A stretch of 63,732 nt of DNA, counting the filler, from Nitrospinae bacterium RIFCSPLOWO2_12_FULL_45_22 (lineage in GTDB: Bacteria > 2-12-FULL-45-22): assembly GCA_001803565.1 (NCBI GenBank). It is 7 parts of 7 records of this genome, joined end to end, with 100 filler letters (N's around TTAATTAATTAA, not from the genome) between each part and the next. Parts side by side here need not be neighbours in the genome. Positions count along the whole stretch, not along the records: positions 47,804 to 58,367 come from MHDQ01000231.1; 6 more parts are not named here. One strand, written 5' to 3'. The notes under the pieces are model-generated. The model searched no databases. It saw only the letters and a program-made list of their open reading frames with translations, and was not told the origin of the DNA. Positions 47,804 to 63,500 of this stretch are shown here, piece after piece. Each line of letters starts with the position of its first letter. Positions within the stretch are counted from its first letter, which is position 1. A program made the translations under genes and the position numbers.

Positions 47804-48412
47804 TGAGCCTACATAATAGGCCACCGGCATCGGCTCACCCCGGGCATGCCACTTCTTCATAATAAGATCCCCTTGCTGGCCATAGGTAGGGTCATAACCG
47901 ATGCCATTACGGGTATGGATCATACCGCGGTAGTTGGCCCAGTTATTCCAATGCTCCTCCGGGTCCTCCATGCACCAGCAGCCGGTAGTGGTATACCGAC
48001 CCCCATCACCATGATGCAGATAAGGCCAGGGGAACTTCAGGAGATTCGCCTCTTTACCCATCTGGATATGTTCTTTGCAGGGCCCGGTAGAAACTATGGT
48101 CGGAGGGATACCGGTGTATAGTCGCCTCAAGAGTTCAAAGGCAAAATCAAAAGGATGGGCATCGGGCGGGGCACCACCGGCAATGGCTAAACGGCGCCAT
48201 ATCTGCTGCGGTGGGCCTGCCCAGGGCTCTCCCAATAACGTATAACCCTCCGGATAACCTTTTATTTTTTTGAACCAAAGGATTGGGCCGCCTACCCGGC
48301 AAGACATGGTAGAGAAGGCCGCCGCCTCCAGATTCCAATCTACCTCTTCTTCTATCTCGATCAACTCCCCCAACTCTTTTAATCGCTTTATGAATTCTCG
48401 TATTGATGGCAT
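47804..48412 (-). CDS. UbiD-family (de)carboxylase, 3'-truncated
   Basis: IREFIKRLKELGELIEIEEEVDWNLE and HHGDGGRY motifs. Confidence 0.88.
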
Positions 48413-48752
48413 CTTGACCCCCTTGTTGGTTAACTGGTTAATTAGTGAGTAACCGTTCAGCCACCAAGGCACTAAGTCACCAAGAAGCTCAAAACTTAAA
48501 ATGCAAAGTCTAAAATTAAGGTAATTATTCCTCCCTGCCTGTGCGGTGCACGCAGACAGGAGCTTTACACTTTTAGCTTTGCGTTTTACATTTCCTTGGT
48601 GCCCTTGTGTCTTAGTGGCTGATAAAGCTTAGCCGGGTGAACTGGTTAATTAGTGATTGGTTAATTGGTACTACTCACCATTCACCAGTTTAATGAATAA
48701 CCTCTTCTTAAAGCTTAGCTGAAAACTGACGTCTGACATCTGAATGCTAACT

Positions 48753-50267
48753 TTAGCGGCCAACAATCTGGGGCTTGGGTTTTATCCCTAATTTTTCCCA
48801 GCGCTCTAATACTCGCTTACGGATCTCTTGAGGGAAATGTTCAAAGGAGAGCCTGGCTGGTATATCCTCCTTGGGCCAGGTAGTGGGGAAGGTACAGTCA
48901 AAAAAGACCTTGCTGCCTGTACCGCGTTTCTTGTCTTCCTCGCTAGTATAAGCCACTAACGGACTCAGCGAGGCATCGGCCCCTTCCCAGATAACGATCC
49001 CCCTATCCGGATGGTTCTTCTCTATGAAATCCCAGTAGACATAGGTCATCTCCATGGGTGGCACATCATCTTCCACAAAAATAAGCTTATCAATTAGCCT
49101 GCCGGCCCGAGAGGAAAATACGGTAGCCGCTATCTGGTAGGGATGGCCGGGGAATAGGGGCTTTATAGAGATTACACCGGTGGTAAGGCCCCACTCGACC
49201 GGTAAGTTCAGCCAACGGACAAATAGGTTCGCATGGAGTCTAATTATTCTGATAAGTTCAAAAGAGGCGGTAGTAGACAAAACAGCCATAAAATCCGATA
49301 CTTTAGCCCCATCTACTATAAAAGGCAGGATAGGGTTTTTGCGATGAGTAATGGCTTTTACATTAATAACTGGTTGAGGAGAAGGTTGAGAATAGCCAGC
49401 CGTCTTCTCACCATAGGGCCCCTCAATAATACGCACATGTGGTGGGACTTCCCCTTCTATCACGATCTCAGAGGTTGAAGGCACCAACAGGTCAGAAGAC
49501 TCGGCCTTTACCATCTCTATCGGCTCTAGTCTCAACCCCCCTGCTATTGCTGCCTTATCCGTACCTTCCAATAGGAAGAATAATGAAGAAATATATAGAG
49601 CCACTGGGGCACCTAAACAGATACATATCGGCATGGGCTTGTTTTCTCTTTCATACTTCTGATATATCTTCCAGATCCCTTCACCGATAATAGTAATGAG
49701 AGAAGGCTCTTGAGGTAAGAAAGAACCTATAAGGGTCCGATAATCTTTAATCATGACCCGGCTGAATCCCCATTCTTGCATACCACTCTCTGGATCCTTA
49801 GCCGTGATCCCATGAAAAGAGGAATACCGTCCCCCATCATCGGCATGGATAAAAGGGAAAGGGAAATTAAACAGGTCCACTTCGTCCCCCAGAAGGACCT
49901 CCTCCTTGCAGGGGCCACTCTTGACCTGAGTAACGCGCAAAGGACTTCTCAACCTTTCCTTTATCACGTCCAAAAATTCCGGGTAATAGTATTTGTTATA
50001 AGCAAGGTTATGCTCTAATTCCAGGGCAATAGCCTGTCTGGTCCAGGGTAGCCGTTCCCGGGTATAAAGGGTCCCGGGACCGCTCAAGAGGCTCGTAGCC
50101 ATACTATACCCTTCCGGATAGCCCTTTATATTTTTGTAATGGATAGCCTTATCCCCCAGGCGGTTGCTCATGGCCCCCAAGGCAGCCGCTTGCAAGTGCC
50201 AATGAATTTCTTCTTCAATCGGGTTTAGCTCCCCCATCTTCTCTAGCCTGGCAATATATCTTCTCAT
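48753..50267 (-). CDS. UbiD-family (de)carboxylase
   Basis: HADDGGRY, EIVIEG, EGPYGE and FFDCTFP motifs. Confidence 0.9.
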   Translation of the reverse strand: MRRYIARLEKMGELNPIEEEIHWHLQAAALGAMSNRLGDKAIHYKNIKGYPEGYSMATSLLSGPGTLYTRERLPWTRQAIALELEHNLAYNKYYYPEFLDVIKERLRSPLRVTQVKSGPCKEEVLLGDEVDLFNFPFPFIHADDGGRYSSFHGITAKDPESGMQEWGFSRVMIKDYRTLIGSFLPQEPSLITIIGEGIWKIYQKYERENKPMPICICLGAPVALYISSLFFLLEGTDKAAIAGGLRLEPIEMVKAESSDLLVPSTSEIVIEGEVPPHVRIIEGPYGEKTAGYSQPSPQPVINVKAITHRKNPILPFIVDGAKVSDFMAVLSTTASFELIRIIRLHANLFVRWLNLPVEWGLTTGVISIKPLFPGHPYQIAATVFSSRAGRLIDKLIFVEDDVPPMEMTYVYWDFIEKNHPDRGIVIWEGADASLSPLVAYTSEEDKKRGTGSKVFFDCTFPTTWPKEDIPARLSFEHFPQEIRKRVLERWEKLGIKPKPQIVGR

Positions 50268-50282
50268 ATGACACCCCTTTCT

Positions 50283-51197
50283 CTAATTTGACCTATTTAG
50301 CATATCCTCCAATGTTTTTGCAATCTTCATAACCTCTTTAGAAGCCGGGCTTTCGGGATGGGCCAGGACAAAAGGCTTTCCCTCATCCGAGCAGACACTT
50401 AACCGTGGGTCCAAAGGTATCCTACCCAAGAAAGGCACTTCCAGATCCTTCGCTAGCTTCTCACCACCGCCAAACCTTAAAATATTTACTGTGGTACCGC
50501 ATTCGGGACAGACAAAACCACCCATGTTCTCTATAACCCCAAAGATCCTCACCTTGGCCTTCCTGCAGAGCAGACTGGCTTTATAGGCTACATTCTGGGA
50601 TACTTCGGAAGGGACCGTTACTATTACTGCACCACTCAGATCAGGAATATATTCCATCATATTCACTGAATCCGAGCTGGTACCGGGCGGCAGATCTATC
50701 AGTAAATAATCCCTCTCTCCATATACCACATGGCTAAGAAACTCCTCGGTAGCATTCCTCCTCATATCATGAAACCAGGTTAATACCTCATCGTCTTGCA
50801 GAATATTACCCATAGAGATCACCTGGATACCCAATGTGCCTTCCACCGGTAGAATTCCATCATCACTAAGGGTCAGCTTCTTGGCCATAATGCCGAGCAT
50901 CTTCGGTACCGTAGCCCCATCGAAATCCTGATCTAGAATGCTCACTTTCCTGCCCAGCATGGCCAGGGCAGTACCTAAGTTCACGGTAGTTATTGATTTA
51001 CCCACGCCCCCTTTACCGCCTACTATAGCAATCTTGTGCTTGATCTTGCTCATAGTTTGTTTAGCCTTACCCATCCGCCGGCGGATAAACATCTTATCTT
51101 TCTCGGGGTTCTCACACTCAAAGAACTTTTCGCAACTCTCACAAAACTTGTCACAACTAAGGTCTACATTAATAGAAATAATCTCCCTGCCTTCCAT
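50283..51197 (-). CDS. Mrp/NBP35 (ApbC) Fe-S carrier ATPase with an N-terminal Cys cluster
   Basis: GGKGGVGKS, DLPPGT and ENM...CPEC motifs; N-terminal CDKFCESCEKFFEC. Confidence 0.9.
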   Translation of the reverse strand: MEGREIISINVDLSCDKFCESCEKFFECENPEKDKMFIRRRMGKAKQTMSKIKHKIAIVGGKGGVGKSITTVNLGTALAMLGRKVSILDQDFDGATVPKMLGIMAKKLTLSDDGILPVEGTLGIQVISMGNILQDDEVLTWFHDMRRNATEEFLSHVVYGERDYLLIDLPPGTSSDSVNMMEYIPDLSGAVIVTVPSEVSQNVAYKASLLCRKAKVRIFGVIENMGGFVCPECGTTVNILRFGGGEKLAKDLEVPFLGRIPLDPRLSVCSDEGKPFVLAHPESPASKEVMKIAKTLEDMLNRSN

Positions 51198-51295
51198 AAA
51201 GCATCCTCCCTTACTAAGTTGTTATTGGGAAAACAAATGCATTCTTACTTTTTTCGGATAACATTTTTCATATACCTAACCCTTTGCCCTATGCG

Positions 51296-51389
51296 TGTAA
51301 CTCAAGGCTTTAGCCTTGAACAACCCTAAAGGGTTGAGTTACAGGGTTTATAAAGGGTTAACTACTTTTGGGCAAACATAAAAGATGCC
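51296..51389. repeat. Dispersed palindromic repeat, second copy of 6609-6702
   Basis: TGTAACTCAAGGCTTTAGCCTTG..AACCCTAAAGGGTTGAGTTACA...GTTAACTACTTTTGGGC...GATGCC. Confidence 0.8.
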
Positions 51390-51667
51390 GGAACAAGGAG
51401 GTAAAATATCCCCTCACCCCTCCTTTACCTTTTAGCACAGTGGACAATTCCATGTCAAACGTTTCGTTTAATGTCAATAAACTTCTGAATTGCCTTGTTA
51501 AACCTTCTAGGTTGATAATTGTCCTAAACGATAGAATATTCAATGTCTTTTTAGGCAGAACTTTTTGGCTAGAAAAAATTTTTCCTTTATTATATACTTT
51601 TTTTGGCCAGCAAGCCAGATTTTTTGATTCCCCCATCACCGCAAAGGTTGATAAAAGGAGGTAAGAG

Positions 51668-52792
51668 ATGGAGAGTTTTAAAGAGTTAATAGACAATCGC
51701 CACGAGTATGCCAGGGAATGGAAGAAAAGAACCGGGGGCAAAGTCCTGGGATATTTATGCTCCTATGTGCCGGAGGAAATAGCTGTAGCAGCAGGGGTAC
51801 TTCCGGTCAGGATCTTTGGTAGCCATGAACCTCAGGATGTAGCAGAGAAACATATATATTCGATGTTTTGCCCCTTTTGTCGAGACTGTTTAGCCCAGGG
51901 GTTATTAGGTAGATATGACTATCTGGATGGGTTGGTCATGGCACATAGTTGTATGCATCTCCGCCAGACCTATTTTTCCTGGAAGACTAATATACCCTTA
52001 TCCTACACTTGCTATATCGGGATGCCTTCTAAGCCCCAGAGCCCATTAGCCAAAAAGTTTTTAAAAGGCGAGCTGGAAGACTTTAAGGAGTCCTTAGAAG
52101 AATGGACCGGTAAAACCACTGGCAATAAAGAACTGGATGAGGGGATAGAGGTTTTAAACCAAAATCGTCGGTTGTTGCGGGAAATATATGAATTGAGAAA
52201 GGATGAAATACCGCCTCTTACTGGGGCAGAAGCCATGGAGATAGTCTTATCCAGTCAGGTTGTTGATAAAACTGAGCATAGTAACCGGTTAAGTAAATAT
52301 TTAGAAGAAATAAAGCAGAGGAGCGGAAAGGGTGAGAAGGATCAGGTAAGATTGATGGTTATAGGCAGTGAAAACGATGATACAGAAATGATTAAGTTAG
52401 CTGAATCTCTAGGCGGTATAGTAGTGATAGATGACCATTGTACTGGGACAAGGTATTTCTGGAATGAGGTAATACCAGAAGAGGATAGACTATCAGCCAT
52501 TGCTACTCGTTACCTGGACCGGCCCCGATGTCCGCAGAAAGACTTTGAAACCAGGAGCAGATTGCCGCATATTGCCCAATTGGTCAAGGGTTATAATGTG
52601 CATGGGGCAATCGTCATCCAGCAGAAATTTTGCGACCCTCACGAACTGGATATTCCTATAATAATGAATTATCTAAAAGAAGAACTAAACACCCCCAGCC
52701 TTTTCCTGGAGTTTGATGTTACGTTCCCGGCAGGGCAGTTCCGGACCAGGATCGAGGCCTTTATAGAAACCCTTCAATTAGAGGTTGTGTAA
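51668..52792 (+). CDS. Benzoyl-CoA reductase BzdN-like / 2-hydroxyacyl-CoA dehydratase family subunit
   Basis: MFCPFCRDCLAQGL, DDHCTGTRYFW and QQKFCDPHELD motifs. Confidence 0.88.
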   Translation: MESFKELIDNRHEYAREWKKRTGGKVLGYLCSYVPEEIAVAAGVLPVRIFGSHEPQDVAEKHIYSMFCPFCRDCLAQGLLGRYDYLDGLVMAHSCMHLRQTYFSWKTNIPLSYTCYIGMPSKPQSPLAKKFLKGELEDFKESLEEWTGKTTGNKELDEGIEVLNQNRRLLREIYELRKDEIPPLTGAEAMEIVLSSQVVDKTEHSNRLSKYLEEIKQRSGKGEKDQVRLMVIGSENDDTEMIKLAESLGGIVVIDDHCTGTRYFWNEVIPEEDRLSAIATRYLDRPRCPQKDFETRSRLPHIAQLVKGYNVHGAIVIQQKFCDPHELDIPIIMNYLKEELNTPSLFLEFDVTFPAGQFRTRIEAFIETLQLEVV

Positions 52793-53013
52793 TCACTACC
52801 TTAAGCGTAGAGTATTTGCTTTTAGGAGCGACAGCGCCAGTGCTGTCATTCCTAAACTCAAGGTTTTTGTAAACATACAAGAGGGTATTTACCGCAGAGA
52901 CCCAGAGCTTCGGAGAATAGAACTATATGCCGATAGAACTAAACTAGCTCATCAATAGGCTTCTCTGCGCCTCTGCGCCTCAGCGGTGAATAGTAAAAAA
53001 TAAGGAGGCAAGA

Positions 53014-54321
53014 ATGATGGAGACGATAAAAAACTGGGAGAGTAAACCCTTAGAATGTTGGCAAAAGGCAAAGGAATTAAGACTAAATTTTTATAAAGAA
53101 TTCATAACGGCAAATCAGGAAGGCAAGATAGTAAATGTGGCCTGTGGCTTAGTGCCCCAGGCGTTAATTGCTGGGTTTGGGGATTTTGTCCATCTGCAAG
53201 GGGAGCCTTACGGGGCCAGTTGTGGCTTTGATCGTAGGTTTTCGGACGAAGTAATAGATGCCTTTGAGACCAGGGGTTTTGCCCGGGACCTCTGATCATA
53301 TTTAAAGAACCAGTTAGGTTCTATCTATGTCAATAAATATCTCTTTGGTGGTGAATTCCCTAAGCCCACATTTGTATTAAGCGGACATGGCTGTGATAGT
53401 CATGCCAAATGGGTTCAATTAATAGCGGAACATTACCAGGTGCCTTTATATGTCCTTGATCTCGGCCTAGCTGATATAACCGAGAAAAAGACCCAACGAA
53501 AAATAGAGTATTTAACGGAACAACTATTTGAATGTGTGGAGTGGCTCGAGCAAGTTACCGCGAAGAAATTTGACGAAGATAGATTCAGAGAGGCTTTTAT
53601 TAATACTACCCAGTTGGGACAGCTCTGGGCCGAAATTTGCTGCCTTAATAAGGCCATTCCGGCACCTTTAGACCAAAAATCCATGTACTCATTCTTTGCC
53701 TTCCCCCTACTGGCACCCCATAGGAAAGAGACCGTAGAGCTTTATCGAGAGTTACGGGATGAGACGAAATGGCGGGTAGAGAATAAGATAGCCGCAGTAG
53801 CCACTGAGAGATGCCGACTATTCCATGATGGTCAACCACCCTGGGGATTCTTGAAAATTTTTCGCTATCTGGAAAAATATGGCGCCGTGTGTGCCGGTGG
53901 AATATATGGCTTTTCTTTGGGAGCAACCTGGGATTGGGATAAAATGGAGCCCGCCAAAACCCCTATAGAAAAAGGGGCCCCTTTAGATACCAGAGACGAT
54001 TTGATTAAGGCTTATGCCGAGTGGTACATAAAGAGTTATATCGCCCAGAATATGTTATTTTCCCCCCTATGGAAGGCCGAAGCCTATCTAAAGACTATGA
54101 AGGACTGGCATATTGATGGACTATTGGTCCATCTCAATCGGGGCTGCGAAGGATGGGCCTTTGGTCAGTTAGAGATGCGCCTGGGGGTGATAAAAGGCGG
54201 TTATCCGGTATTAACCTATGAAGGGAATATGAGTGATAACAGAGAATTTGACGAATCTCAAACGCTGGATAGGCTTGAGGCCTTCCTCCAGAGCCTGGGG
54301 CTAAAAAAGCTGACCGATTAG
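53014..54321 (+). CDS. BzdO-like / 2-hydroxyacyl-CoA dehydratase family subunit, probable selenoprotein (TGA 53293-53295 read as Sec)
   Basis: Track ORFs 53014-53295 and 53440-54321 share one frame and are separated only by a single TGA in GFARDL*SY. Other motifs: GEPYGAS, GCDSHAKW, HLNRGCEG. Confidence 0.85.
53293..53332 (+). promoter_or_regulatory. Putative bacterial SECIS hairpin
   Basis: TGA-T-CATA-TTTAA-AGAACC-AGTTA-GGTTCT-ATC-TATG-TCA: a 6-bp upper stem, a loop with G in position 2 starting 16 nt after UGA, and a lower stem that includes the UGA. Confidence 0.7.
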
Positions 54322-54503
54322 TTATGCCAGGTAAGAAGACTAGACCGGATTTATACGGGATTGAAACTGCGGCTTGAGGGCCGAGTGGACAGTAAGGAGT
54401 GAGCAGTAACAAAAAGAGAAAGCTTCAAAGAAAGGATGGATCACGAGAGTTTACATAATTCTGAAGGGTTAGGTAATTTGGTTTGTGGTAACAAGATAAG
54501 CTT

Positions 54504-54884
54504 ATGGATGTTGCTATAGGGACAGACCTGGTAGAAATAGGACGGATTAAAGGGGCTATAAATCGGAGGGGAGAACGGTTCCTTAACCGGATCTTTACCC
54601 CTAATGAGATAAGGTATTGCCAGAGGCAAAGGGCTCCTTACCCATGTTATGCTGGCCGCTTTGCAGCCAAAGAGGCGGTATTTAAGGCCTTAGGCAAAGG
54701 ATGGCGCTTGGGTATGAAATGGACCGAAATGGAGGTGTTAAACGATCCCCAGGGCCAGCCATATATCATCTTGAGCGGTAGGGTCAAAACCCAGGCAGAG
54801 GAGGTGGGAATCCGCAGGTTTTTGATAAGCCTCTCCCATACCCGCGACTATGCCCTCTGCCAGTTATTGGCCCTCAAAGAGTAA
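54504..54884 (+). CDS. acpS: Holo-ACP synthase
   Basis: IGTDLVEI, AGRFAAKEAVFKALG and ISLSH motifs. Confidence 0.95.
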   Translation: MDVAIGTDLVEIGRIKGAINRRGERFLNRIFTPNEIRYCQRQRAPYPCYAGRFAAKEAVFKALGKGWRLGMKWTEMEVLNDPQGQPYIILSGRVKTQAEEVGIRRFLISLSHTRDYALCQLLALKE

Positions 54885-55350
54885 TTAATCCGTAAACTGT
54901 TCTGGTATAGCCACAAAAAGGCGCAAAAAGCTCTTTGTGGCAGAATAGTTATAATATCCTTATAAAGGGTATTGACGATTTCATAAAAAAGGTTAAGATT
55001 ATTAAAAAGAAATGGAAGGCAAAGAAAGTTCGGCACAGAGAGAGGGGATTTCATATGCCATAAAAAAAGATTTGAGGAGGGGAAGGCCATTTTTAAAAAT
55101 CGTTTAGTAGAGGCAATTACTTATCTGGTTATTTCCTTGATTTGTCTTGTTGCTGGATTAAAGATCACTAATCTCAATTATGCTATTTTTCTTTATTTGA
55201 TGGCGGCCATGTTCGTTTTGGCTATCTTCCGGCCCAAAGAACTACCGTAACACAGCTTAAGGCGCAAAGTGTAAAGCTTAAAAAGCTGAGGTAATTTGTT
55301 TCCTGAGTTTTGCGCGTTGCGCCTTAAGCTGTACGCTTTCTATTAAGAGG

Positions 55351-55427
55351 GGCGGTGTAGCTCAGGTGGTCAGAGCAGGCGGCTCATATCCGCCATGTCG
55401 GGGGTTCGAGTCCCTCCACCGCCACCA
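55351..55427 (+). tRNA. tRNA-Met (CAT), elongator type
   Basis: GGCGGTGTAGCTCAG...GGCGG-CTCATAT-CCGCC...GTTCGAGTCC...CCACCA, with a paired 1:72 position. Confidence 0.93.
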
Positions 55428-55620
55428 TCCCTTAGCTTAATCCATACTCTTTTTCTAAATACCAGGGTTCGATGGGCATTCTTCAGAGTCGCTACGGCGC
55501 CATAACCCGTGGTAGCAAATCCTTGATCTCGATCATCGGTGACTCGGGCTTTTCAAAAAGGCGGCTCGCACCGAGTACCTCGATCCCGGCTCTAACGATT
55601 TTAAATAAAGACAGTATTCA

Positions 55621-56010
55621 TCAATGGACTCTGAAGCGATAGTGCAACTTATGAACATTACTTACTTGATCGAATTCCCTTTGAATCTTATCCCGGACTT
55701 CCCGATCAAGTCGAGTCCAGGTCGTTGTTTGACTTGGAATTGGATTTATAGGCGCATCATAACCATATGCCAGATTTATTCCACAAAGGTCAGAGATTAA
55801 ATATCTATCGTGGAAATCATCCCAGATGAATACCTCGAAATTAAACTGATTCCAGCCGGCCTGTTTAAACCGAGCATTCCAATCCTTAAACTGGACCACC
55901 TGTCTACTTGCTCCATAACCTTCATAGCATACTCGATGAAGTTCAATTATAGGTCTTGGTCTATTGCTGGGACGATCAACAAGGTTTATGCTTCCGGATC
56001 TCAGCCTCAT
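55621..56010 (-). pseudogene. C-terminal fragment of an unknown accessory protein
   Basis: FHDRYLISD motif, no credible start, lies among other fragments. Confidence 0.45.
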
Positions 56011-56085
56011 CCAAGGAAACGTACTTCAGGTCGCTTAAGTCCAGACGTCCGCTGAAATCGATATTATTCATACGTAGCATTGGTG

Positions 56086-56295
56086 TCAGTAGAAGGCAAA
56101 TCTCGGATGTAGAACATCGGAGTTAACCCGAACGATAAAAACATGCTCATTAACCGCGGCTTCGTCAAAAGGAAAATCATCGTTTACAAAAGCTGTTTTG
56201 CCTGTTGTGGCTCTATCCTTTACAATTAGAACATCATTCCGAAGGATATTGCCTTGATTAAGGGATTCATAATAGGATCTCGGTATAAATTTCAT
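56086..56295 (-). pseudogene. Type I R-M specificity-subunit (HsdS-like TRD) fragment
   Basis: NDVLIVKDRATTGKTAFV...AVNEHVFIVR. Confidence 0.65.
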
Positions 56296-56309
56296 TCCCT
56301 CAAGACGTG

Positions 56310-56788
56310 GCTTGCCATCATTGAACTCTCTACCAGGTTAGATTACCTGGTAAAAAAGAGGGGCATAGGCCTGGTAACCGGTGAGGTAGGTAGTGGTAAA
56401 ACCACCGGCATCCGGGCCCTCTGCCATGCCCTTAACCCAGGCCTCTATAAGCCCCTCTACTTGCCTAATACCACCGGAAGTGTCCTGGACCTCTATAAGT
56501 CCCTGGCAGAGCTCCTGGGTCTTATTGACTCAAGCTCCAGGGCCAAACTCTATATCCAAATCCATCATGAGATAGAGCGCCTGGTGGAGAGTAAAAAAAT
56601 CTCTCCTCTCCTGATTGTGGACGAGGCCCACCTCCTCCGCATAGAGGCCCTGGAAGAGCTCAGGCTCCTCACCAATTACCAGATGACACCCGCAAGGCGG
56701 GTACCCGCGGGAACATCTTACCCTTATCCTGGTTGGCCAGGCAGAGCTACGGATAAAGCTAGGCCTCAATATCAATGAGCCATTAAAC
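56310..56788 (+). pseudogene. ExeA-like AAA ATPase (transposon helper) fragment, frameshifted
   Basis: GEVGSGKT and LIVDEAH motifs. The continuation HLTLILVGQAEL is in another frame after a GC palindrome at about 56689-56711. Confidence 0.75.
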
Positions 56789-56789
56789 T

Positions 56790-57493
56790 CTGGCTTATCA
56801 CATGGGAGACAATCCTGTGGAGACGGTAATAAAAGGAGGGCGGGTTGTATTAGAAAATGGGCATTTAATATGAAAAAAGATATCTCTTGAGAAGGGGATT
56901 TCCCGGAAAATACGGTTGCCCTTATTGGTTTTCCTTTGGATAAGGGCATTGAACGGATCGGGGGACGTATCGGCGCATCCCGCGGACCGGCCCGGATCAG
57001 AAAAGCCTTTTACCGGTTGGCAAACGGATGTCGCCATCCGATTAATGAGTTAACTTTGCTTGACCTAGGTGATGTAGTACCTCAGATGGATCTAGAAACC
57101 TCCCATGAGCAACTGGGCGATATTATAACCTTCTGGATAAAAAAAGGAATATTACCCATTGTCCTGGGAGGCAGCCATGACTTAAGCTTCGGCTCAGTCA
57201 GTGGCTTAATCCAGGCAATACCTGGTCAGGAGAAAATCGGCCTGATAAATATTGATAGTCATCTCGATATAGATGTATGTGCGCGGGCTTATACACCAGG
57301 AGCCAGTGCATCCCAAGCCGATGGACTTACGGCTTCAGAAATCCTTCAGATTAGTTTTTTGGCTGGAAAAGAGAAGAAAGTTAAGCTCTTGGATGTCTGT
57401 GAAGTCAGCCCGCTTCTGGACATAGCGAATATGACGGTTAGCCTGGCTGCCCGGATTATCTATTGCTTTTTACAGGGCCTGACATTAAGATAG
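56790..57493 (+). pseudogene. hutI C-terminal remnant plus a formimidoylglutamase/arginase-family (hutG-like) pseudogene
   Basis: LAYHMGDNPVETVIKGGRVV tail. The next gene starts at ATG 56870, has TGA at codon 7, and joins DSHLD directly to IDV, which implies a large internal deletion. Confidence 0.75.
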
Positions 57494-57511
57494 GGAAAGG
57501 ACCAAAATTAA

Positions 57512-57566
57512 TCCCCCTCACCTCAATCCTCTCCGCTTAGGGGAGAGGATTGAGGTGAGGGGGGGT
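57512..57566. repeat. Long hairpin (REP-like element or terminator)
   Basis: CCCCCTCACCTCAATCCTCTCC-loop-GGAGAGGATTGAGGTGAGGGGG. Confidence 0.7.
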
Positions 57567-57585
57567 ATTTTCAGGAGAAAGATTT

Positions 57586-57933
57586 ATGCAACCAAGCAAG
57601 ATTATGCACATAAAGCGTCATATGCTAATGGTCCGGATTATCTACTGGGCCAATGCCTTTTGTTTTGTTAGCCTGCTTATTTCTGCTCTGGCGTTGTTGG
57701 GAATAAAGAATTATGAGGTAAATTATTGGGGTTATTTTTATTCGATGACTTTTCTCTGGCATGGTAACCTGCACGATTATCTGATTATCCCGTATCTGCT
57801 TCTCTTTTTACCCCACCTTTATCTCGCTTTAATAGCCTATCCTATTACTTTTATTGGCATGATAACCGGGTATGTGCCCAAAGAATATGCCCAGAAGCGC
57901 CACCAAAAATGGTATCAGGACAAAGTTGGATGA
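57586..57933 (+). CDS. Small membrane protein, function unknown
   Basis: AGGAG RBS and two to three hydrophobic segments. Confidence 0.55.
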   Translation: MQPSKIMHIKRHMLMVRIIYWANAFCFVSLLISALALLGIKNYEVNYWGYFYSMTFLWHGNLHDYLIIPYLLLFLPHLYLALIAYPITFIGMITGYVPKEYAQKRHQKWYQDKVG

Positions 57934-57973
57934 AGGGGCTTAAGGGAACAATCGTTTATCCCCGAGGTAAGTT

Positions 57974-58367
57974 ATGTTTCAAAGCCTGAAAGTAAAAATA
58001 GCCCTGTGGGTGGGAGTACCCCTGATTTTAATTGTGAGTGTCTCCCATCTCGTGGCCCTCAGAGGGATTCAAAAAGAACTAATGACTGCGGCAGAACTCA
58101 GGGCCAGATCTCTCCATGGCGTGATCAATCGGTCGATCTTCTATATAATGCTCCATGGCAGGTCCCATAAGGGAGGAATAGACACTCTTTTAAAGGCGAT
58201 ATACTCCATTTCCGAGGTGGAGCAAATAAGGATATTTAGTGAAGAGGGAATTATCCTGAAATCATCAAAACCGGAAGAAATAAGAGAAAAAATATATAAA
58301 GAAGTGGAGGAAGCTACCCGGAAAATAAATATTACGCCGGAGAAAATTGAAGGAGAAGAAGTCATTG
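57974..58367 (+). CDS. Membrane sensor (histidine kinase/MCP-type) N-terminus, truncated at the contig end
   Basis: FQSLKVKI-TM start and periplasmic IRIFSEEGIILKSS. Confidence 0.65.
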
Positions 58368-62225: not shown

Positions 62226-63500
62226 CTATACCCGCTCGGTCAGCATTTCAAAAAATCCTTCGAGTTTATCCTTTAGATCATCGGTTGAGGCAAAGGATGG
62301 GTCCATAACATCACAATCGAGGACCAGCGTAGGGATATTGCATTCCTCCTGTAAGGCATCCTTTATGCTTCGGATAAGGGCACAGGCCTGTCGGCAGCCA
62401 ATATGGGCAAAATAGAGGGCCCCATGCGGTTTAAATTCCCTGGCTATTCTTAAGGTGTCTCGGATAAAACTATCTGCCGGGCCGTGCATCTGTTTGATCG
62501 TGGAAAAATGGAGATTAATCATGGCCAAACTCTCGAGGGGTTTGGATAGATCAATATTATCCTGGCCCACCCAGGCATTCCCGGATTCCATAACAATACT
62601 GGCACCATATTCCCTTTCCAGCCAATCCAATAGCTTCAGTTCATAAAAGGGTGGTATAAAGCAGGAGATGAGCCTGAAACGCTCTTGGGGAATAGCTCCC
62701 TGCTTATTTTCTACCTTTTCCCGAATCTCATCACGAATGAGTTCCAGATAAGCTACCCCTTCGGGTGTAGCTAAACATAGCCAGCCAGCAATAAGCATAT
62801 TTACAAATGTTCTATTCTTCATAGGGGCAGGTATGGCTTTTCTCAGTTGATAAATTTCTCGATAGAGTTGAACGGTACGCCAGGATAAAGCCACGACCTC
62901 TCTAAGGCGGTCATAGTCCATTTTTCTCCCGGTTTGCTCTTCCAGAAAATGAATCAATCGCTCTAATTCTCTTACAAAATAACTAAACTCAACACCATTA
63001 CCCCTATAAGGCCGTTCCAGGAAAAACCCTGGACACCTGAATTTATCCATCAATAAATCGCCACTCTTGGCGGTATTGTCACAAACTTGATTCGTCCATA
63101 CAATGAAATCTGGTCTGGGCATCTCCTCCTTGATCGAACTGGCCGCTAAAATCCTATGGGCAGAGCATACCTCTGGCGCTAACCCGGCTTCAGCCGCTGT
63201 GCCGAGGTATTCCCCATACTTATTCAGCATAATAGTCATCATGGCTGCGGTTGATTCCAGATGGAGCGGGACAATATCCATGGCATGGAATAATTCTATG
63301 GGTGCCATGACGGTATGACCCCCGATAAACTTTCCCTCCTCTTTGGCATTCACTATTTTTTTATAGTAATCACCCATTAGTTCATAATAGACCTCGTCGC
63401 TCTTTATAGTGGGACTGGCCTTACGGTGGCGATGCATAACTCCAAGGATATCAACCATCAATTCTAAGTTTGTCTTCTTGCTGTCCTCTAATCTCTTCAT
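62226..63500 (-). CDS. 2-hydroxyacyl-CoA dehydratase / benzoyl-CoA reductase family subunit
   Basis: GLAPEVCSAH, QVCDNTAK and HIGCRQ, giving three cluster-type Cys. Confidence 0.88.
   Translation of the reverse strand: MKRLEDSKKTNLELMVDILGVMHRHRKASPTIKSDEVYYELMGDYYKKIVNAKEEGKFIGGHTVMAPIELFHAMDIVPLHLESTAAMMTIMLNKYGEYLGTAAEAGLAPEVCSAHRILAASSIKEEMPRPDFIVWTNQVCDNTAKSGDLLMDKFRCPGFFLERPYRGNGVEFSYFVRELERLIHFLEEQTGRKMDYDRLREVVALSWRTVQLYREIYQLRKAIPAPMKNRTFVNMLIAGWLCLATPEGVAYLELIRDEIREKVENKQGAIPQERFRLISCFIPPFYELKLLDWLEREYGASIVMESGNAWVGQDNIDLSKPLESLAMINLHFSTIKQMHGPADSFIRDTLRIAREFKPHGALYFAHIGCRQACALIRSIKDALQEECNIPTLVLDCDVMDPSFASTDDLKDKLEGFFEMLTERV

Follow-up and report, generated by a model that had tools for sequence, protein, structure and literature searches.

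We analysed a 63,732-nucleotide (nt) stretch of DNA (the window) from Nitrospinae bacterium RIFCSPLOWO2_12_FULL_45_22 (assembly GCA_001803565.1), a metagenome-assembled genome of 321 contigs and 3.67 Mb that is 85% complete. The subject of this study is a gene at positions 53014-54321 that is predicted to encode a BzdO-like subunit of the HGD-D family with a selenocysteine (Sec) residue at position 94. The window (1-63732) consists of seven contigs (C226-C231 and C248) that meet at paired 44-N spacers, so gene neighbourhoods across these joins are not real. The gene itself lies on a single contig, C231 (window 47804-58367, ~10.5 kb), downstream of a BzdN-like gene, and carries a candidate selenocysteine insertion sequence (SECIS) hairpin at its in-frame TGA (Table 1). 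An earlier note on this DNA, made from the sequence alone, had described one 435-codon frame interrupted only by the TGA at 53293-53295. Translation bears this out, with no further stop and no frameshift in the 435 codons, and places the TGA at residue 94 in the context GFARDL-U-SYLKNQLGS.

Table 1 Features of the locus and related genes. Positions are those of the window unless a contig or locus is named.
Feature	Position	Strand	Evidence
BzdO-like HGD-D subunit, predicted selenoprotein (Sec94)	53014..54321	+	435 residues, single TGA; PF06050, TIGR03191, 8s02_A
UGA, predicted Sec codon, at the column of BzdO Cys95	53293..53295	+	8s02_A alignment, paralog column, independent contigs
Candidate bacterial SECIS	53293..53332	+	Fold, minimum free energy -9.5 kcal/mol
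Shine-Dalgarno-like AAGGAGG	53002..53008	+	5 nt before ATG, read from the sequence
BzdN-like partner, 374 residues	51668..52792	+	TIGR03190 433.6 bits (cut-off 453.8); 8s02_B E 5.5e-125
Mrp/ApbC-type iron-sulfur cluster carrier ATPase	50283..51197	-	Pfam ParA/NUBPL E 5.7e-75; MrpORP 242 bits, below cut-off
UbiD-family (de)carboxylase	48753..50267	-	Pfam UbiD domains; TIGR00148 207.8 bits, below cut-off
Second UbiD-like frame, cut off	47804..48472	-	Pfam UbiD domains
Distant HGD-D paralog, Cys at the aligned site	62226..63500	-	29% identity; contig C248
HadB-like HGD-D alpha gene with TGA at the Cys column	C53:6642-7889 (L044), same genome	+	Paralog alignment
HadB-like HGD-D alpha gene with TGA at the Cys column	C148:3047-4339 (L045), same genome	-	Paralog alignment
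Dehalococcoidales BzdO, TGA at the Cys95 codon	L041:1480-2805, contig CAZCMK010000078.1	-	TIGR03191 577.9 bits, above cut-off

When read through the TGA, the protein matches the HGD-D family of Pfam (PF06050) over profile positions 1-342/342, with an E value of 1.4e-49 and 170 bits against a gathering threshold of 28.4. The top NCBIfam model is TIGR03191 (benzoyl-coenzyme A (CoA) reductase, bzd-type, subunit O; 404.6 bits), and among solved structures the closest match is BzdO from Aromatoleum sp. CIB (PDB 8s02_A, E 2.3e-112). In the alignment with 8s02_A, residues U94, C127, C378, E64, H130, and Y96 correspond to Cys95, Cys128, Cys380, Glu65, His131, and Tyr97 of BzdO. According to the available part of the BzdNO structure paper (Fuchs et al. 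2025, PMC11971306), Cys95, Cys128, and Cys380 are the ligands of the BzdO [4Fe-4S] cluster, the fourth iron carries a water or hydroxyl, and Glu65 and His131 adjoin the cluster water as an acid/base pair. The statement in the earlier note that the first conserved Cys of this family ligates a [4Fe-4S] cluster is upheld by the alignment, in which this residue is Cys95, a ligand of the catalytic cluster. The benzoyl pocket of BzdO is formed by Trp46, Ser44, Leu302, Leu383, and Tyr97 in the same source, as far as it is available. In the window protein, Leu46, Cys44, and Trp381 stand in place of Trp46, Ser44, and Leu383, and only Leu302 and the Tyr are kept. With its pocket remodelled in this way, the enzyme would probably act on a substrate other than plain benzoyl-CoA. 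In the adjacent BzdN-like protein, all six cysteines of the BzdN [8Fe-9S] cluster (Cys36, Cys73, Cys100, Cys263, Cys293, and Cys327) are aligned to Cys, and the homologies of the two proteins together indicate that the pair encodes a catalytic core of the BzdNO type.

The prediction presupposes a Sec machinery, and selA, selB, selD, and tRNA-Sec were all found in the genome. SelA scored 524 bits, the wing domain of SelB was recognized within a 642-residue frame, and SelD scored 401.5 bits with one TGA within the motif GGGU. The tRNA-Sec, with the anticodon TCA, is located on contig C247. The selD gene (C19:5853-6779, minus strand; L003) is thus a selenoprotein gene itself, and it has a strong stem-loop downstream.

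The HGD-D family is much expanded in this genome, with 67 PF06050 and 10 BcrAD_BadFG matches, many of which form adjacent alpha/beta-type pairs. We aligned the 35 of the 67 HGD-D matches that match the window protein. The residue-94 column holds Cys in 32 of them and TGA in three, and this column is the only place in the 35 sequences where an in-frame TGA occurs. The three TGA genes are the window gene and two HadB-like genes (matched stretches C53:6708-7886 and C148:3053-4042), each of the latter being preceded by a gene for a double-cubane-like beta subunit. The two HadB-like genes have a common 8-base-pair (bp) hairpin 18 nt past the UGA, in which a single U-A to U-G change separates the two genes. 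Furthermore, all five short database homologs of the N-terminal piece of the C53 gene stop at ...GFGRDS, directly ahead of the TGA. The paralog near the end of the window, which the earlier note had set beside the gene, indeed carries Cys at the aligned position, but it is a distant relative on another contig and on the opposite strand (Table 1).

The hairpin after the UGA that had been described from the sequence, with its two stems, a UGA-to-loop distance of 16 nt, and G at loop position 2, was recovered by folding. The upper stem of 6 bp (AGAACC/GGUUCU, 53306-53311/53317-53322) encloses the loop AGUUA (53312-53316), and the lower stem (53293-53300/53326-53332) takes in the UGA itself. In the bacterial SECIS model implemented in bSECISearch, the apical loop lies ~16-37 nt past the UGA and has a G in its first two positions. 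The geometry of the hairpin fits this model as it is commonly stated; its stability is not distinctive. The 48 nt starting from the UGA fold with the minimum free energy given in Table 1 (z = -2.53), and six of 200 shuffled sequences fold as well. Fold stability was also considered as a discriminator among the paralogs and was rejected, with the TGA genes ranking 4th, 10th, and 16th of 35. A scan of positions 52700-53600 against Rfam, with E values up to 10, gave four chance-level matches and no SECIS family.

Bacteria show low-level UGA read-through, and the UGA might accordingly be read as a standard amino acid such as Cys or Trp, either by a near-cognate tRNA or under an altered code. We consider this improbable. 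TGA terminates 494 of the 1821 open frames of at least 250 codons (27%), so the genetic code of this genome is standard. Moreover, the in-frame TGA is confined to the Cys column in 3/35 paralogs, the Sec pathway is complete with selD as a selenoprotein gene, and a hairpin stands at SECIS distance.

Orthologs were searched in a collection of 5.8 billion proteins. At this site, the nearest relative of full length (P0002, 77%) has the sequence ARDL-C-SYLKNQLGS, and two other orthologs, P0003 (89%) and P0005 (83%), are present only as C-terminal pieces. When the 93-residue N-terminal piece was used as the query, exactly two proteins of 92 residues were found (P0122 and P0123), both ending in ...GFARDL. 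These are paired with P0003 and P0005 through identical recorded lengths of the longest contig (40,234 and 26,682 bases), and the P0122 cluster is found on 32 contigs. The N- and C-terminal pieces therefore show that the break is conserved at the Sec codon and that both of its flanks are conserved. Two expectations of the earlier note agree with these data: homologs alternate between Cys and TGA, both in the paralogs (32 to 3) and in the Cys ortholog P0002 as opposed to the split orthologs, and gene callers split the gene, the databases holding pieces of 92 and of 289-338 residues. Among 119 full-length database homologs, 118 have Cys at the residue-94 column (the query itself was entered as C). 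A search of representative proteins with the 93-residue piece gave 84 matches, 83 of them readable, and none of the 48 under 200 residues ends at the Cys column.

Since gene callers give two pieces for the orthologs, the TGA could instead be a true stop, with the 93-residue piece and a restart product assembling as two polypeptides. This is very unlikely. The stretch from the TGA to Cys127 contains no in-frame ATG, GTG, or TTG, which makes a restart product implausible. The first listed restart, at 53440, has no apparent ribosome-binding site and would lose Cys127 and His130, leaving a product without two of the cluster ligands. In addition, the break falls exactly at a cluster ligand, which would be lost.

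A TGA at the same position was also found outside this genome. One genome per species was scanned for the pattern G-[FY]-[AP]-R-D-x-TGA-x-Y-x-[KR...]-x3-G-S, and five matches were obtained, four of which were chance matches without homology to the query. The real match is a BzdO gene in a Dehalococcoidales genome, which exceeds the TIGR03191 cut-off and has TGA at the Cys95 codon (Table 1). Its product, read through the TGA, retains Trp46. The gene belongs to a bzdNOPQ-type row that comprises a PaaX-like regulator, a BzdN-like protein (430.6 bits, below the cut-off), BzdO, an activase, and a BzdQ-like protein, which is below its cut-off and is cut by the end of the locus. A 7-bp hairpin with the loop GGGCU lies 20 nt past the UGA (z -2.88), and the genome carries selA. 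In a neighbour-joining tree, which has no support values, the window gene is placed with the two split orthologs, to which P0002, the ortholog with Cys, is sister. The gene from the Dehalococcoidales genome is located elsewhere, beside a Cys form. This topology, which is no more than suggestive, agrees with at least two Cys/Sec switches among the BzdO-like proteins and a third in the HadB-like group.

A low-depth contig from a divergent strain has 15 differences from the window in 186 nt. None of them is in the 55 nt at 53274-53328, which contain the TGA and the upper hairpin, whereas all 15 are in the next 131 nt, and 8 of the 11 listed differences are at third codon positions of the read-through frame. 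Together with the ortholog identity of 83-89%, this third-position bias indicates that the frame past the TGA is under coding constraint. The bias also speaks against a pseudogene, in which the TGA would be a true stop created by nonsense mutation of the Cys codon. The change from TGC or TGT to TGA needs only one base, and the redundancy provided by 67 HGD-D matches could tolerate the loss of one gene. However, the orthologs of 89% and about 80% identity are broken at this very codon with both halves conserved, and a second lesion is absent over the 435 codons. The same column has TGA in two more paralogs and in the Dehalococcoidales BzdO, and the short homologs of the C53 N-terminal piece (5/5) end just ahead of their TGA. 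We therefore regard gene decay as highly improbable.

The TGA is not confined to this assembly. Apart from the source contig, a search for the locus in metagenomes yielded only two contigs nearly identical to it and a single 50% homolog; the contigs of the 89% and 83% orthologs were not among the results. None of the 22 sequencing runs returned for the locus is listed as RNA. The two near-identical contigs (L035 and L036; 99.4% and ~99% nucleotide identity) have the same TGA and their own substitutions elsewhere, and contigs of all four runs (four studies; one run may be the source sample) span 53293-53295 without a variant. An error of sequencing or assembly in which TGC or TGT became TGA, for which the fragmented metagenome bin would give some occasion (321 contigs, 85% complete), is of negligible probability, given the same TGA on two metagenome contigs with independent substitutions and on the contigs of 4/4 runs.

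We assign a probability of roughly 0.85 to the reading in which 53014-54321 encodes a full-length BzdO-like subunit whose UGA94 is decoded as Sec, in place of the Cys95 cluster ligand. The UGA, its place in the invariant Cys column, the Sec machinery, and the conserved break in the orthologs are observed, and the insertion of Sec, the Fe-Se ligation, the substrate, and any effect on redox behaviour or reactivity are what we infer within it. Several points weigh against this reading. The protein scores 404.6 bits against the BzdO equivalog cut-off of 448.6 bits and misses it. Of the BzdO-like identity assigned in the earlier note, the full-length homology with 8s02_A stands, whereas the score below the equivalog cut-off and the altered pocket speak against a genuine BzdO. 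No BcrAD-type ATPase is encoded on the 10.5-kb contig C231, and the 10 BcrAD_BadFG matches of the genome are all elsewhere. For the split orthologs (89% and about 80%), we infer from proteins only that the interrupting codon is TGA. The short hairpin is AT-rich; when 61 nt are folded, z is -0.98 and 35 of 200 shuffles do as well, and the 53329 G>A change of the low-depth strain contig disrupts one pair of the lower stem. When the same 48 nt were compared across the 35 HGD-D paralogs, the window gene was 4th by z and three Cys-coding paralogs folded better, so the stability of the hairpin alone is not diagnostic. Finally, Sec forms are rare. Among 401 sampled genomes of the class of the Dehalococcoidales genome, 26 have BzdO-like genes, and TGA was found in only one of the 50 matches, the seed itself. 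With the window protein as the query, it was found in none of 43 matches from 40 other genomes.

We propose the following mechanism for the predicted selenoprotein. SelB and tRNA-Sec would insert Sec at codon 94, and the hairpin beginning at the UGA would assist them. Sec94 would bind one iron of the [4Fe-4S] catalytic cluster, thereby taking the role that Cys95 has in the homologous BzdNO. It would be one of three protein ligands, and the fourth iron would carry the reactive water. The BzdN-like subunit would provide the double-cubane [8Fe-9S] electron store, and the activating ATPase would be encoded elsewhere in the genome. By analogy with BzdNO, the enzyme is most likely the core of a reductase that is driven by ATP, acts on acyl-CoA (probably aryl-CoA) at very low potential, and has a selenolate as a ligand of its catalytic cluster.

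The closest known system is BzdNO of Aromatoleum sp. CIB (8s02). In the available part of its description (Fuchs et al. 2025, PMC11971306), BzdO resembles the window protein in the positions of the cluster ligands and in Glu65, His131, and Tyr97. The order of the genes, N followed by O, is also the same, as is the presence of a BzdN-like partner with six [8Fe-9S] cysteines. The window locus differs from Aromatoleum in that the first ligand is encoded by TGA, the pocket is altered, and the contig has no bzdPQ ATPase genes. A bzdNOPQ operon with ATPase subunits is absent from C231, on which the BzdN-like gene is adjacent. The string 'selen' has no occurrences in the BzdNO structure paper (PMC11971306). 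HadB, the alpha subunit of (R)-2-hydroxyisocaproyl-CoA dehydratase (PDB 3o3m), shares the HGD-D fold family but is far more distant (E 5e-32; 156.9 bits with NF052455, whose cut-off is 750), and it is a dehydratase, not a reductase. The [4Fe-4S] cluster of HadB is placed similarly to that of BzdO, according to the available part of the same paper (PMC11971306). No Sec form of HadB was found in the literature searched.

The class II (tungsten) benzoyl-CoA reductase subunits BamE and BamF and Sec197 of Methanococcus HdrA likewise show alternation of Cys and Sec and genes split by gene callers. They also serve anaerobic aromatic-ring reduction or low-potential electron transfer, but their protein families are unrelated to HGD-D. 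In the sources available in part, HdrA Sec197 and BamF Sec19 are discussed as selenol/selenylsulfide redox sites and not as iron-sulfur ligands. In contrast to these redox-partner residues, the predicted Sec94 would replace a ligand of the catalytic cluster. Sec replaces a metal-binding Cys in the [NiFeSe] hydrogenases and in Mo/W formate dehydrogenases. The metal is Ni, Mo, or W in those enzymes, whereas the predicted Sec94 would bind an iron of a [4Fe-4S] cubane.

The double-cubane protein DCCP (PDB 6eno and 7yyl; NF040772) belongs to the same superfamily and has a related activating ATPase, but its match to the window protein is weak (E ~1e-6). The NF040772 model gave 64.8 bits and missed its cut-off of 350. 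The statement in the earlier note that Sec had been reported in double-cubane reductases could not be confirmed. The available part of the Haft 2022 preprint gives a neighbourhood link only: these reductases neighbour a selenoprotein operon, do not count as known selenoproteins, and are not known to be tied to selenium. Full-text searches, which covered neither subscription journals nor selenoproteome supplements and reached some sources only in part, found no report of Sec in HGD-D, class I benzoyl-CoA reductase, or 2-hydroxyacyl-CoA dehydratase proteins. Within benzoyl-CoA reduction, this literature so far records Sec solely for the class II enzyme (BamE and BamF), which is unrelated. The window gene would thus represent ordinary bacterial UGA/SECIS recoding, applied to a catalytic iron-sulfur cluster ligand in a family for which we found no earlier description of it.

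We also consider, with somewhat better than even odds, that Sec directly ligates the catalytic [4Fe-4S]-OH2 cluster of radical enzymes driven by ATP in the benzoyl-CoA reductase/2-hydroxyacyl-CoA dehydratase superfamily and that the switch arose at least three times at that position. The three proposed switches are those of the BzdO-like clade of the window gene, the genuine Dehalococcoidales BzdO, and the HadB-like clade of this genome. If true, such a recurrent Cys/Sec switch would imply that a selenolate gives a selectable change in an ultra-low-potential cluster.

Class I benzoyl-CoA reductases reduce the aromatic ring beyond normal biological potentials by means of a [4Fe-4S] cluster with bound water. 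In the available part of the structure paper (PMC11971306), the Cys-to-Ala variants of the BzdNO cluster ligands could not be produced on account of their instability, and the electron paramagnetic resonance signals were not assignable to single clusters. If the prediction is true, a natural Sec ligand would allow the tuning of such clusters by ligand chemistry to be tested. It would provide a catalytic iron-sulfur cluster that is naturally ligated by selenium and has a built-in 77Se label for spectroscopy, and the known uses of selenocysteine would be broadened. Because gene callers split such genes, the pathway seems broken in groundwater, soil, and sediment genomes, including in the bzd operon of the Dehalococcoidales genome.

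The window protein has three further cysteines, Cys44, Cys70, and Cys293 (window 53143-53145, 53221-53223, and 53890-53892). Of 119 homologs, only the window protein itself (P0001), P0002, and P0004 have all three. By motif reading, two of the three are at positions of double-cubane ligands in BzdN. In BzdO, Trp46 fills the space of a lost sub-cluster; this residue is Leu in the window protein, in which Leu383 is replaced by Trp. A second iron-sulfur cluster bound through Cys44, Cys70, and Cys293 was considered and not adopted, as Gly occupies position 293 in P0003, the 89% ortholog, and the trio is thus not invariant.

Two UbiD-family genes and the Mrp-type carrier gene lie upstream of the bzdNO-like genes and are arranged divergently from them; all of them score below the respective equivalog cut-offs. 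This neighbourhood is compatible with an aromatic-acid pathway, without proving anything. The intergenic region between the bzdN-like and bzdO-like genes (window 52793-52997) is 206 nt long here and 67 nt long in L036, and other sequencing runs depart from the window sequence upstream of 52998. Within this region, the stretch at ~52960-52990 is repeated on three further contigs of this genome as well as on many short, high-depth contigs, and this recurrence suggests that it may be a small repeat element.

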